A stretch of DNA of 64,000 nucleotides. Source: Schmidtea nova. Taxonomy: Eukaryota. The DNA lies in NCBI GenBank assembly GCA_044892505.1, contig CM097883.1:37014001-37078000 (forward strand). The letters run 5' to 3'. This document shows positions 5,996 through 13,559 of the stretch, in pieces (positions within the stretch are counted from its first letter, which is position 1; the number at the start of each line of letters is the position of its first letter). Both the position numbers and the translations under genes were made by a program. The notes under the pieces were generated by a model. It saw only the letters and a list, made by a program, of their open reading frames with translations. It made no database searches and had not been told where the DNA came from.

Positions 5996-6084
5996 ATATT
6001 TATTATTTTTATTAATTAATGCGCGGGTTAACCGCTTAACAAACTCTTTTAAACAACGAAACTTACAATGTTGAGATTATAAAA

Positions 6085-6235
6085 TTTTTACATATATAAC
6101 TAATTTTTTTCAACCTTAATTTACATAAATTTTTACATATATAACAATTTTTTCTAAAACCCCAATTCACATAATCCTTCACATATATAACAACCTTTTT
6201 ACAACCCCGATTCACACAATTTCAAAGATACATAA
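6085..6235. repeat. Degenerate ~45-bp tandem repeat (about 3 units)
   Basis: Recurring (t/c)acatatataac..ttttt..aacc(c/t)..att(t/c)aca. Confidence 0.65.
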
Positions 6236-6302
6236 AACACGCATGCATCTATTTATGTCAAAAATTCATATTCAACCGTGTGTCCACAGAACATTACACA
6301 AT

Positions 6303-6371
6303 GCAAGTGAGCAACCTTGACGGTTACTATTCCCTTGTTTCATCTACGGGTTCACCACTGCCGATAGAAGG
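6303..6371 (-). ncRNA. Candidate conserved structured RNA motif (three-way junction), copy 1
   Basis: ccttctatcggcagtggtgaacccgtagatgaaacaagggaatagtaaccgtcaaggttgctcacttgc aligns almost without gaps to 39569-39637; stem agtaacc/ggttgct. Confidence 0.5.
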
Positions 6372-6518
6372 CCCAGCGGCGTATTTACCTGTAAGTAGAT
6401 TAGGCATTTGCCTAGGGCCTCGGATTTATAAGGGCCTCCAAAATACAAAAAAAAATTATAATTTTTTTTTTAAAAAAAACAAGTCGTAGCATTTTACATT
6501 TTAAACTTTAACAGTTTT

Positions 6519-6836
6519 AAAATTTTCAGAGTTTAAAACCTTTTGGGGCCTCAATTTCAATTTACAAAATAAAATTAGTAGGCCTTTACAAAATAAAATA
6601 TATGAAATACAAAGTATTGCTTGGATGTTGCTTTTTTCCTTTTTGAATATGTTCAAATTCTTTTACTTATAAGAATTTATAAGAAAAAATAACAAATAGG
6701 ATAAAAGCAACATCCAAGCAAGGTTTGAATTTTTATATTTTGAATATAATATATTTTATTTTGTAAAGGCCTGCTAATTTTATTTTATAAATTGAATTTG
6801 AGGCCCCACGAATAGGTTTTAAACTTTGAAAAATTA
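6519..6836. repeat. Long foldback (~130-bp arms) in the hAT 5' region
   Basis: ..aaaacc..ggggcctcaa..ggcctttacaaaataaaat..ttgcttggatgttgctttt is mirrored by aaaagcaacatccaagcaa..attttgtaaaggcc..ttgaggcccc..ggttttaaac. Confidence 0.85.
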
Positions 6837-7167
6837 AAAAGAAAAATAATAAAATTATTTTTTAAAAAAAAAACAATAGTCGTAGCATTTCATATGCAAT
6901 TTCATTTCATTTATTGTTTGAATTTTGTTACGTTAACATCAAATTTTCGTTGCATGATTTTGAATATTGAAAATAAATATTTGTACGTATTGATTATTAG
7001 CATAATTTTGATTTTAGATTGATATTTTCCGAATAACCAACAGTTTTTTTTAAAACTACCAAAACCAATCGTTGTTGCTTCTTGCTTTCGTCATTTAATA
7101 TTTCATAATTCACTCGACAATTATTCCATTTTATTTTTAAAAAAAATATTGACAAATATACGTTAAA

Positions 7168-10037: not shown

Positions 10038-10072
10038 AAACAATAAAAACAAGTCACGCTTGATACATATAT

Positions 10073-10642
10073 TCATCCTAATAACACACTAGGGTTTATC
10101 ACACTTAACAATTGTGTTTCGTTAAGACCGCTAAGTAGGTCCACCTCAATCCCCATTCGTTCCACGAATGCCCTCCTTTCCCGCCATCGTTTGGCGCCCA
10201 ATCGGTTCCGTTTCTTGGTTTTAGCCACTATAGCCAGCGATTTGACCTAGGATACATTTCCCGTCTCTAAAGGAGCGGTATTCATCGGTAATGTTTCCGT
10301 CTGCGTTTCTATAGTTATACTTCGGATCGGTACCCATCGCTCGAACATGGCCGTCCGGATTTGATCTTTCAGGTACTCAGACATGAAATTTGCCGAGACT
10401 TTCCTGAGGCACCTGTTCAACTCGACCTTTGTGGCTGCGAGTTCCGTGGATTGTTCGTCAAGGGCCCGTTGGACACGGTCTTTACTCTTAAGAATGCCTT
10501 TTATAGCTGTAAGGCCAAACCAACTTCGGCAGAGTTTCTCTAGCTCTACGCTTTACCGATTCACAGTTCCTTCGAGTAAACGATTTCGTCGCCGCAGTTG
10601 CTTAAATTCATCGCTATCAACATGTTTGCAAATCTCGTCCAC
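10073..10642 (-). pseudogene. Family X ORF B homologue (coiled-coil, basic C-terminus), two in-frame stops
   Basis: After acceptor ttcttcttctag: VDEICKH..KLCRSWFGLTAIKGILKSKDRVQRALDEQSTELAATKVELNRCLRKVSANFMSEYLKDQIRTAMFERW..KTKKRNRLGAKRWRERRAFVERM..LSGLNETQLL; aligns with 38733-39329. Confidence 0.8.
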
Positions 10643-10979
10643 CTAGAAGAAGAATAGATATATGTCGGCATATTAATACTAAGGACAGCTTGCCATTGCT
10701 CTCTCTGTTTTACACCTACCTTACGTAAACTCATCTACTCTTTTCTCTAACTACTTTTCCTCCCTAATATCCCTTCATTCATCCCCATGATACATCTCTC
10801 CAAGTGATCAGATCATACCCATTTAACTCATTTACTCAAGCATACGCAACACTAGATACATAAAACGACTTTAAATAAACAAAACTTTTTATTTTTATCA
10901 TCATAAACTGTATTTTCATCAATGTTATCCGACAGATTTTCTTGGACTGTACTAGATGCTCCATTCCTGTGAGTACTCG

Positions 10980-11520
10980 CTAACACTCCTTTGCGTTCCG
11001 TTCGTTTGATAGAAATCTGGATTCGGGTTCCAGCATAGCTGACCTTTGTGCAGAAATATTTCCTGACATTTCCTGCCACGTGATACTCGAGGCCCACGGC
11101 GATCCATGGTTTCCGAGGTCCGGCACTCCAAAGGGTAGGTTCTGATACGGGATCTGTTTGCCTGTGACATTGTTGCGAGGGCGATCCAGAATAATGTACC
11201 TCAAGCGATGAATTTTAGTAATAGCCATCGGCTGAAAGTGAACCAGCTATCTTGGGATTCCTGCTGCGTCGTGCATCTCAAGAAACAATTTTGTTCGTTT
11301 AGCTTTCTTTGCACCACTCAGTAGCGGCCAAGGGGCGTCGCCTTCCCGTCGCAGCTTGATACCCATTCAATTCTCACCCGCGAAAGGAGCGGATATGCCG
11401 AATTCCCTTCGCCACTGGCGCAAATGCCTTTCCACTTGCTTTTGAATGTCTTTCGGTACTCATGTAAGTACGATGGCCTTTAAAACAGATTTGATACATT
11501 CGCTATTCGGTTTCCGACAT
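10980..11520 (-). pseudogene. Family X ORF A homologue, disrupted
   Basis: ATG one base after a ttag acceptor; VPKDIQKQVERHLRQWRREFGISAPF..LRREGDAPWPL..LFLEMHDAAGIPR..NLPFG aligns with 38083-38559. Confidence 0.75.
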
Positions 11521-12749
11521 ACTAACCAAGATGGTTTAGCATTTTCGACCTGTGTAAATTGTTAGCAAAAGGCTTTATAATTATTGGGTTGGAAAGTGTC
11601 AGGCAATCACCCTTCCTTATCACACCATTTTCTGGCATCAGACCCACATTGGTTTCCCCATTTTCTGGGTAATTCATTTATCATACTTTGCATACTCTCA
11701 TCGTCCGTCACTTGGGCTGTCCTTTTCATCATACACCTCATTCATGCATCCACCCATTCTCATCCAGTTTAATCGCAACCATACTCAGTCTTGCAGAAAA
11801 ATCCAGATCGTTATTATTATAACTACTCAACTTTGACTCTACTGTGTAGTAGTGAGCCTACACTCAAAGTGGTTCTCGGTTGACAGATTTTAGTCATTCG
11901 TTATATATTTTTATCAAATTTCAGTATTCCAAAGCTGAATCGATATTTCATATCGTCAACTTACTACGATACACATATTCCTATTTTTACGAATCGGTAT
12001 CTATCTGGTGGTACTGGTGATCCCCACTCCCTTTACGCTTCATGCAGGTTTTCAATTCATTTCGAAATCTGCAGCATATACAACAATCGCCTGGAGCAAA
12101 CCTCACTTAAACATTCAGCATTTTCATCAAACTCATCGTCGACTCAAGCATTCTGTTCATGATATTCATTCAGTATCCTGCCGGTTTCGTTGGAAATGAT
12201 CTATATCGTCACTGTGCTGGTGTTATATCTCTGCATGTGGTGTTTCTCAAAGCGTGTGAGTGACTTTGTTAAAATCACGGTTCTCTTGATGACAGAAAAA
12301 ATTGTGGTAGTCATTGTTTCGGATACAGGAATGATGTTTTCAAATGATGGGTACGTCAATACTTTATACTATCTCCTATGCACCCTCATCTAGAGTCTGT
12401 GTTTGCAGTCAACCATCTACTAGATAATATATGCTCTTGTCATTCATCATTTAGTGCAACTATGTGCGTCCCCTCCCGATCCATTAGTTAATTTAATCTA
12501 CGCAGCATCGGCCATCACCCATAAGGTGTTGCGCCAAGAGGCCCATTTTTGCCCGTCGGGTTCGGAGACTTTCGGGACGTATTCCTAACGATTTTGCAAA
12601 AACATTCATGAGGGTTTAATAGGCATATTAACATCATCAAAACAAAATCATAACCATACCTTTTATTTCCACAAGTTCGATTGGTTCAAGATACAATTAC
12701 AATGTCTTTAAGTTGATAACAATGACACTCTTGGTGTGCTAAAAGGTCT

Positions 12750-12820
12750 CTCAATATGACTGACTTTCAACTGATTTGGCTACTGCTTATATAGCAGTTT
12801 CTGGTTTGAGCTAGCCAATC
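12750..12820 (-). promoter_or_regulatory. Putative Pol II promoter of family X copy 1
   Basis: Minus strand gattggct, then ctatataag, then tcagt Inr-like motifs ~19 and ~30 nt after the TATA. Confidence 0.55.
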
Positions 12821-13559
12821 ACAATTCAGTATGCTTGTAAATTTGTCATTTGTTTGTTTTATAAATGTTAACCAAGTAATTTTCTGTGTTAATTCGTGCG
12901 TTATACTTCTGACAGTTTTCTTTATTTTAGATTGTCAGCGTATTTTCAAGTGTCACCCGTGCGATCCACCCACTCACTGCTCATTTATCTTGCTTCGGTT
13001 CAATGGATTTTACGTAAGTTTTATATTTTTCATTGCTGCTTCATTGTTATGTTATTTATTTCAGGTCTCAATGATTTCTGCTCATCTATGGTAATTTAAT
13101 TGTTATTTATTTTATTACTTATAAATTTATGTTAGTTTTTTATGCAACTTGTTTGGCCAACCACTTTAAAAATATTATTTTTCAAAGGTAATAATTTAAA
13201 TTTTTTGAATTATTTTTAAATTAAACGAAACATCAAAATGATATTTTTTTCACTTTTTGCAATCAAAAAAATTGTAGAGTTTTACTTTCTGGTTATTTTG
13301 TAATTATTTGATTAATATATTTATGAAGACTAATTTTAAAAATTCAACTCAATTTGTTTATAAGATGCAATAGGTTTTCTATAAGTTGAATATGAGTGAC
13401 TGTGGGACAATTTATTAAATTTTTCTATTCCAGTATCACAAAAAACCTTTTGAACTGCTAGCCTAATTAGTAATTGTCTTTGCATTACATTTACAGTCTT
13501 ATAAAGTTATTTCAATTATTTTAAATTTTTTTTATTTCTTATCATTCTGAAATTAGAAA

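Follow-up and report, generated by a model that had tools for sequence, protein, structure and literature searches.

Why should two deeply diverged segments of one genome keep the same order of promoter, two open reading frames (ORF A and ORF B) and RNA motif? The question is raised by a 64,000-nucleotide (nt) stretch of Schmidtea nova DNA (GenBank assembly GCA_044892505.1, contig CM097883.1, positions 37,014,001 to 37,078,000 of the forward strand), here called the window, which holds copy 1 on its minus strand and copy 2 on its plus strand. Copy 1 is an old, broken solo long terminal repeat (LTR) of a Burro-type giant gypsy retroelement with an envelope, and copy 2 is a younger solo LTR from a lineage other than that of copy 1. 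Judged from its sequence, the LTR resembles a transcription unit of two spliced genes placed after the genomic promoter. We tentatively favor, at a little short of even chances, a mechanism in which the LTR's own promoter drives spliced mRNAs for A and B, both proteins serve as regulators in trans, and B lets unspliced element RNA leave the nucleus as Rev of human immunodeficiency virus (HIV) does.

The unit is the LTR of a giant retroelement

The original prediction had described a free element carrying cargo genes; the unit proved instead to be the LTR of a Burro-type retroelement. A search of the animal's own genome with ORF B of copy 2 returned 9,619 first-look candidates, and the 150 that were scored are 81-100% identical to the query. 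Many ORF B matches form same-strand pairs spaced 21-30 kb apart. Two 26-kb elements are flanked by 3.2-kb direct repeats that are 99.7% and 98.7% identical, and a direct-repeat test gave a third LTR pair (99.88% identical) at both ends of a gag-pol element. The element is of the ~30-kb class (span 5278-35155 in element E1) and has the gypsy order of protease, reverse transcriptase, RNase H and integrase. Internal ORFs of one 26-kb element match, in Pfam, RING, CCHC gag, a Monjiviricetes-type fusion protein, protease, reverse transcriptase, RNase H, integrase, ankyrin and TRAF/MATH. The fusion-protein match (Monjiviricetes_fusion, E 4e-72) is followed by RVP downstream in the same ORF, which places an env-like protein between gag and protease. 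BCL2-like, BIR and dUTPase-like motifs gave no Pfam match at E 0.01 in nine ORF pieces of one element; PMC6431247 reports some of them, found by profile comparison.

The LTR begins with TGTTGGGCC, ends in CCAGCA and is followed directly by a primer-binding site (PBS); the LTR-PBS junction pattern has 663 matches, whereas its reversed control has none. Within a host gene array, the tRNA-Pro(TGG) genes, which are the likely primer for the element, show complementarity to the PBS in their T-arm and acceptor end. This tandem array has a 308-bp period (G000:C1:459609706-459648710), and its pattern has 1,112 matches genome-wide. TG...CA ends with a target duplication were found for copy 2 (CATA) and for E1 (TAAT), the 3' end of copy 1 being lost. 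The lineage of copy 1 is assigned to the element because its LTRs at two loci (L098 and L164) adjoin both the shared PBS and the RING ORF that comes first internally. The search for an intact LTR pair of this lineage found none: candidate E3 is not a pair, and candidate E4 is a local duplication of 6.2 kb whose internal fragments lie on the opposite strand.

Burro/GYPSM1 elements are giant gypsy-like LTR retroelements of planarians (PMC6431247). The element studied here shares with their published description the size of ~30 kb, the long LTRs, the thousands of copies, the CCHC-knuckle gag, the env-like fusion protein between gag and protease, the protease to integrase order and the RING, ankyrin and MATH/TRAF domains, and differs in that the TRAF/MATH ORF sits after pol in the element examined (PMC6431247). 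The assignment is made on size, domain make-up and order, and not on identity to the deposited Burro1-4 records.

Purifying selection on ORF A and ORF B

In the shuffled-sequence test that the original prediction had named as a possible refutation, both protein matches between copy 1 and copy 2 beat 2000 of 2000 shuffles. ORF B is identical at 50 of 167 columns (30%, score 204) and ORF A at 17 of 78 (22%, N-terminal core only, score 77), so that the roughly one-third identity that had been claimed for both proteins holds for ORF B and is too high for ORF A. Cross-controls stayed at the level of shuffles (A of copy 1 against B of copy 2, 262/500; B of copy 1 against A of copy 2, 421/500), and a profile-profile comparison matched the two ORF A clades with probability 96.6 (E 5e-10). 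At the DNA level the two copies are clearly better than shuffles in the RNA motif only (0/200 shuffles as high); six of eight segments were equaled by 13-52 of 200 shuffles and the tail by 4/200. The intervening DNA had been called hardly alignable, and these tests bear that out, except that ~3.4 kb of the stretch (9780-6374) is a hAT transposon inserted into the RNA motif. A quick ORF B tree, which carries a long-branch warning, separates the clades of copy 1 and copy 2 with support 94.

The further expectation, that distinct lineages had both kept the two genes under purifying selection, was borne out by dN/dS (omega, the ratio of non-synonymous to synonymous rates). Natural copies were sorted into three lineages; sequences with less than 70% seed coverage, near-identical duplicates and cross-lineage matches under identity cut-offs were dropped, leaving 19-50 sequences per set. 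Codon-model omega for ORF A and ORF B, respectively, was 0.28 and 0.16 for the lineage of copy 2, 0.30 and 0.22 for that of copy 1, and 0.23 and 0.11 for a third, young lineage. These values (0.11-0.30) are far from 1, and omega = 1 was rejected in the four sets tested (2dlnL 272, 577, 235 and 657). The corresponding ratio of site proportions (pN/pS) was 0.14-0.41, with codon-bootstrap intervals below 0.46 in 6/6 sets, as against 0.97-2.63 when the reading frame was shifted by +1 or +2 or taken from either of two reverse frames; the remaining antisense frame, whose third positions coincide with those of the sense frame, gave 0.27-0.52, higher than the sense frame every time. The sets are best matches to a seed, a choice that favors conserved copies and thus biases omega downward, yet the third-position excess cannot be produced that way. 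Variants common to several copies gave 0.14-0.45 and singletons 0.34-0.73, a difference that would be expected from selection during replication followed by decay once a copy has inserted. Selection acted on the replicating ancestors, not on broken copy 1. Stop-free frames make up 126 of the 150 scored ORF B matches of one lineage and 142 of the 150 scored ORF A matches of another. In a comparable count, a 557-amino-acid (aa) ORF in an unrelated LTR showed no purifying signal (75 non-synonymous changes in 1328 sites and 14 synonymous changes in 343 sites).

More distant LTR lineages (L128:2114-3008 and L113:6258-6509) have a diverged ORF B (branch length 2.8) and diverged terminal RNAs with the same helices.

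Layout and decay of the two copies

The features of copy 1, of the insertions that interrupt it and of copy 2 are as follows.

13163 to ~4287, minus strand: copy 1, a solo LTR with a decayed 5' end, in the order promoter, ORF A, ORF B, terminal RNA
12794..13163, minus strand: putative U3 of the copy-1 LTR, placed by the family 5' end TGTTGGGCC and the spacing to the TATA box; reverse CCAAT at 12820
12660..12793, minus strand: TATA box and putative non-coding first exon; splice donor GT at 12659
12497..12585, minus strand: GC-rich hairpin element at the start of the putative intron; 34 natural copies aligned, 17 predicted pairs, modest covariation
10952..11542, minus strand: ORF A, ~190 aa, a mixed alpha/beta protein without known homologs; disrupted by frameshifts and stop codons; acceptor AG at 11551
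10073..10641, minus strand: ORF B, ~189 aa; no ATG, two internal stops; acceptor AG at 10644
9781..9810, minus strand: start of the terminal RNA (putative U5), the portion preceding the hAT insertion
6374..9780, plus strand: hAT DNA transposon with a broken transposase (Pfam DUF4371, E 3e-22; Dimer_Tnp_hAT, E 2e-7); 8-bp target duplication, 7/8 matching
6299..6373, minus strand: domain 1 of the terminal RNA, the RNA motif of the original prediction; 85-92% identity to four relatives, with covariation
4299..6298, minus strand: young 2.0-kb solo LTR of an unrelated 7-kb gypsy element; contains ctcaaca at 6075-6069; 5-bp target duplication, 4/5 matching
4287..4298, minus strand: 12 further bases of the copy-1 terminal RNA, the rest of which is missing downstream
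36633..39797, plus strand: copy 2, a complete solo LTR with TG...CA ends and 4-bp target duplication CATA; open ORF A at 38083-38559, ORF B at 38733-39329 interrupted by a single stop, terminal RNA at ~39565-39797

Profile matches and LTR features agree with the predicted common order of promoter, ORF A, ORF B and RNA motif in both copies. The genes lie where they had been placed in copy 1 (profile matches at 11468-11067, continued at 11068-10955 in a second frame, for ORF A, and at 10627-10079 for ORF B), but both are broken there: the frame of ORF A shifts near 11520 and again near 11068, its main frame holds two stops, and its true end is near 10952. With copy-1 ORF B as query, the best of 149 other scored matches reaches only 76%, and the lineage is therefore old. 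Copy 1 itself is dead and unremarkable. Its terminal RNA is split near the start by the hAT insertion (~3.4 kb), and the unrelated solo LTR is inserted right after domain 1. The ctcaaca at 6069, taken earlier for the terminus, lies ~225 nt inside that young LTR (6298-4299), and the actual end of the family is CCAGCA, ~150 nt past the RNA motif. The last ~140 nt of the copy-1 terminal RNA were found neither in the window nor in the preceding 10 kb. At window 4288-4015, an insert resembling a miniature inverted-repeat transposable element, with inverted ends of ~20 bp, replaces the end of copy 1.

Identity between copy 2 and a group of related loci (L069-L080) varies by block, at 82-95% in the 5' part, 74-85% for the ORF A protein and ~95% for the ORF B protein, which suggests mosaic LTRs formed by template switching.

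Putative promoter and predicted splice sites

The putative promoter placed by the original prediction at 12750-12820 has a reverse CCAAT at 12820 and a TATA box at 12793, and it recurs in other LTR lineages. A donor-like site follows the TATA box by ~90-220 nt in nine LTRs, ~110 nt being typical. YAG occurs no more than 5 nt before the ATG in 17 of 18 ORF B rows, compared with 15% of 838 background ATGs, and no more than 15 nt before it in 9/9 ORF A rows, compared with 37% of the same background; the rows were read by eye and are related, coming from about six lineages. The same acceptor pattern precedes the internal RING and TRAF/MATH ORFs in 4/4 elements. Poly(A) hexamers follow the stops in 8 of 9 ORF A rows and 17 of 18 ORF B rows (by eye, no control). 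The acceptors are most simply read as many sites to which a single leader exon would be spliced, in the manner of complex retroviruses.

Because LTRs without the ORFs also retain the upstream promoter, it is probably the genomic one. As it lies upstream of A, both genes would fall in R/U5 and not in U3, and as it lies ~400 nt into a 3.2-kb LTR, the first-strand complementary DNA (cDNA) would be ~2.7 kb long. Were U3 instead the site of the ORFs, with expression driven by the 3' LTR or by an internal promoter as for sag, nef and foamy bel, and with a genomic start near a terminal RNA serving as a 5' element of the trans-activation response (TAR) type, the first-strand cDNA would have the normal short length, and the AT-rich DNA between B and the terminal RNA could hide a TATA box. 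We nevertheless consider this arrangement improbable: a conserved CCAAT/TATA unit, its donor and the intron hairpins all precede A and persist in LTRs that have no ORFs, and inspection by eye, with no scan run, showed no conserved second promoter before the terminal RNA. The arrangement that we prefer thus has the genomic promoter ahead of A and B.

Four contig sets of unknown kind held no informative splice joints and are evidence neither way. A proximity search for retro-copied spliced transcripts gave 0 matches for ORF B and 9 for ORF A, compared with 2 in the control, none of the 9 having an A or B match. In the clade of copy 1, AATAAA stands directly before the first splice donor (window 12669-12659, minus strand; L160, L161, L113, L116 and L085), and the clade of copy 2 is without it; it could mark a short R region controlled by the donor.

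Two RNA elements of the LTR

The terminal RNA is a 240-290-nt element that runs up to the CA of the LTR (43 sequences aligned), and the RNA motif noted before is its domain 1. Four helices covary strongly, with 92.9% of cells paired and two-sided changes in 18 of 31 pairs; the covariation of 0.459 compares with 0.199 in shuffles and at most 0.161 with slid partners. Rfam 15 gave 0 gathering-score matches in the window and two chance-level matches (E ~3) elsewhere in four loci. Hammerhead, hepatitis delta virus (HDV)-like, twister, pistol, hatchet and selenocysteine insertion (SECIS) motifs, compared by eye, did not fit. The position of the terminal RNA beside the primer site makes a role in packaging or priming the most likely one.

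Immediately after the predicted splice donor, in ORF-less LTRs as well, lies the GC-rich hairpin element, with a folding z of about -2.4 to -5.3 in 13 of 17 LTRs. This hairpin element is a candidate protein-binding site. In one LTR with only ORF B (L166) the hairpin is repeated three times.

Proteins A and B

Searches of a 5.8-billion-protein set with ORF B, ORF A and an ORF A alignment gave no match at near lengths, a range that fused forms could escape. Searches of Pfam and of PDB sequences found no homolog for either protein, and ORF B matched no viral or metagenome contig (ORF A was not among these queries). In the ESM Atlas, ORF A had no usable match and ORF B matched hypothetical proteins only (best 0.87). 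The model of ORF A is mixed alpha/beta (mean predicted local distance difference test, pLDDT, 65.9; predicted template modeling score, pTM, 0.61). Foldseek against PDB and viral libraries returned nothing for it at E 0.001, and the best Z in a VIA search was 3.2; these nulls show neither a new nor a different fold.

ORF B is modeled as long helices (pLDDT 78.8, pTM 0.34) with no viral structure match. Its layout comprises a long coiled coil, a conserved WFxP hinge, a variable linker, a basic helix and a hydrophobic, amphipathic C-terminal helix. The basic helix holds 9-12 Lys/Arg per 17-mer in 40 of 41 rows, the remaining row being cut before the motif; the 17-mer lies in predicted helix 144-174 and is flanked by poorly conserved linker. 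Residues 6-89 were modeled as a parallel homodimer (score 0.56, best of three controls 0.02; pLDDT 81; contacts agreeing by at least 94% between runs); 21 of 30 solved pairs passed the mark for a dimer, as did 17 of 29 eukaryotic pairs, while none of 23 single chains did. No transmembrane segment was found in A or B, the highest 19-residue hydropathy being 1.0 and 1.31. The C-terminal helix of B, conserved and hydrophobic, was considered as a candidate leucine-rich nuclear export signal.

A predicted coiled-coil dimer with a basic helix would also suit a protein that acts on transcription, through the LTR promoter or chromatin, to activate or repress the element, for which foamy-virus Tas and HBZ of human T-cell leukemia virus (HTLV) are models. 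In this alternative, which we hold to be unlikely but worth serious attention, the LTR genes are spliced all the same, with A perhaps taking part, and action in trans would fit the existence of ORF-less elements. Weak bZIP_1 matches in 6 of 41 B rows point the same way without reaching significance (best E 0.043). However, the basic helix of B comes after the coiled coil and past a variable linker, unlike bZIP, and a leader with many acceptors poses a problem at the level of RNA that needs a solution.

The genes are optional in cis

Retention of both genes, implied by the original prediction, is not universal, as recently moved full-length elements lack both. Sixteen LTRs were read whole: seven have A and B, two only B, one only A and six neither. 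Among the first 30 of the 663 LTR-PBS junctions, ORF B lies within 1.5 kb in 19 but not in the other 11. Two elements (L157 and L160) have LTR pairs that are 99.87% and 99.94% identical, a full internal region (with a 4,101-aa internal ORF in L160) and no A or B match anywhere; two others (L155 and L167) are gag-only elements with ORF-less LTRs. All four, like other ORF-less LTRs, keep the promoter region and the terminal RNA. Because full-length elements without both genes have moved recently, ORFs A and B are dispensable in cis.

This free variation of gene content among the 16 LTRs is also in keeping with A and B as host-directed accessory proteins (anti-silencing, anti-apoptosis or immune interference) that help all elements in the cell and are lost by free riders. 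The models are Sag of mouse mammary tumor virus (MMTV) and the element's own internal RING, TRAF and ankyrin ORFs; host-like regulators are already described for the internal region (PMC6431247), and Sag is LTR-borne, has an omega of 0.289 and survives mostly in solo LTRs (PMC4667437). Against this, A and B carry no host-like domain or transmembrane segment, and the Arg-rich helix points to nucleic-acid binding, so we rate such a role as rather unlikely, if deserving of consideration.

A model for action in trans

The mechanism that we favor would run as follows. The promoter ~400 nt into the LTR would start the genomic RNA, and a short leader exon would be spliced to the acceptors before A, before B and before the internal accessory ORFs, so that an LTR alone, whether 5', 3' or solo, could make short A and B mRNAs. 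The full-length RNA would keep the donor and all acceptors and would therefore need an export or read-through factor. A dimer of B with its Arg/Lys helix may bind a structure retained with the intron, either the intron hairpins or the terminal RNA. The latter would be a cis element for packaging or priming, kept by ORF-less LTRs too, and A may be a partner regulator, which is a guess. Action in trans is proposed because L157 and L160 moved recently without either gene. A B protein like Rev or CERV is favored because unspliced RNA must escape a strong donor and many acceptors, and because a gypsy precedent exists (PMC10309623).

A number of points weigh against this account. The transcript, start site, splice joints and poly(A) sites are all deduced from the genome, and the hexamers after the stops are uncontrolled and common in AT-rich DNA. 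To our knowledge, a first-strand cDNA of ~2.7 kb is far longer than in retroviral cases. Neither in sequence nor in fold did ORF B match Rev, Rex, Rec or CERV, although models made of long helices are hard to search with; resemblance by itself can carry a generic coiled coil through the dimer test, and the predicted basic helix on a coiled coil would fit DNA binding or a plain nuclear signal equally well. The structure of the terminal RNA was read from the same alignment, of related sequences, so that its controls overstate certainty, and two proposed pseudoknot helices have no two-sided changes. The recent movers without both genes also fit genes that are not needed for replication at all.

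Other elements of the window and related loci

The unrelated solo LTR inserted in copy 1 has 40 scored matches at 92-99% besides the window, and LTR pairs of its family, 99.05-99.9% identical, surround gag-pol. This gypsy family (L237-L244) is 7 kb long, with 2.0-kb LTRs (TG...AA), a 5-bp target duplication and gag C-x2-H-x9-C motifs, by which we take it to be CsRn1-like. The 557-aa ORF counted above lies inside its LTR (window 4283-5971, minus strand), is open in 8 of 9 full copies and has no Pfam match. A Polinton-like stretch is nested between two LTRs of the family in L239-L241, with ORFs that are presumably DNA polymerase B-like, ATPase-like and integrase-like. Elsewhere in the window, 13660-14200 (plus strand) holds part of a further hAT-type transposase that resembles the one in copy 1, and 52734-55461 holds an element whose long inverted ends consist of 14-15-bp repeats and whose 461-aa ORF (53701-55086) we assume to be a Mutator-type transposase by its looks.

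Comparison with known systems

The family has been described before; in the literature searched, the original Burro paper aside, we met neither the LTR cassette of two genes nor its optional presence nor the terminal RNA. In the literature found on Burro/GYPSM1 and on LTR-encoded ORFs, A and B in LTRs are undescribed, and the figures and supplements of the original Burro paper, outside that coverage, may show LTR ORFs. The accessible Burro/GYPSM1 text and figure legend of PMC6431247 name no LTR-internal ORF, leader splicing or terminal RNA structure, and the available portions of PMC8532177 and PMC11410931 do not mention LTR-borne A or B genes.

LTRs are described as "ordinarily non-coding" (PMC4667437). 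MMTV sag is, like A and B, a protein gene inside an LTR that is under purifying selection and preserved mostly in solo LTRs; unlike them, it is one U3 gene upstream of the genomic start, whereas here two genes lie downstream of the putative promoter (PMC4667437). No homology of A or B to sag was found. The Drosophila 412/mdg1 elements resemble the present one in having two short conserved ORFs (sORF1 and sORF2) upstream of gag in a gypsy element, with losses of single genes in some families; they make a short, prematurely polyadenylated transcript, and sORF1 is nuclear (bioRxiv 10.1101/2025.03.14.642691). Those ORFs lie between the flanking LTRs, are unspliced and encode ~110 and 70 aa, sORF2 being a membrane fusogen (same source), whereas A and B have 160-210 aa, lie inside both LTRs, are preceded by acceptors and have no membrane segment. 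For ORF B, CERV and HIV Rev may serve by analogy as the functional model, a regulator made from spliced mRNA that exports unspliced genomic RNA; CERV of the C. elegans gypsy element Cer1 comes from a spliced mRNA and is needed for export of the genomic RNA (PMC10309623).

Taken to its full extent, this comparison would make the Burro-type elements complex retrovirus-like elements with regulatory genes in the LTR, each intact solo LTR being a spliced unit that can supply a Rev-like protein, along with a second one of no known fold match, for action in trans on relatives without the genes and perhaps on host RNAs. We regard this wider picture as possible but doubtful. If true, the solo LTRs, in their hundreds to thousands, would together form a dispersed system of helpers and not inert scars: solo LTRs, normally dead ends, would keep a whole expression cassette. 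The picture makes testable how a 30-kb element with many acceptors exports its unspliced genome, and the A and B proteins provide an alignable marker for LTR evolution among lineages whose DNA cannot be aligned. The known coding exception, sag, is one U3 gene of a mammalian retrovirus; here, an env-bearing gypsy element of an invertebrate carries two selected genes per LTR in what is apparently a spliced unit.

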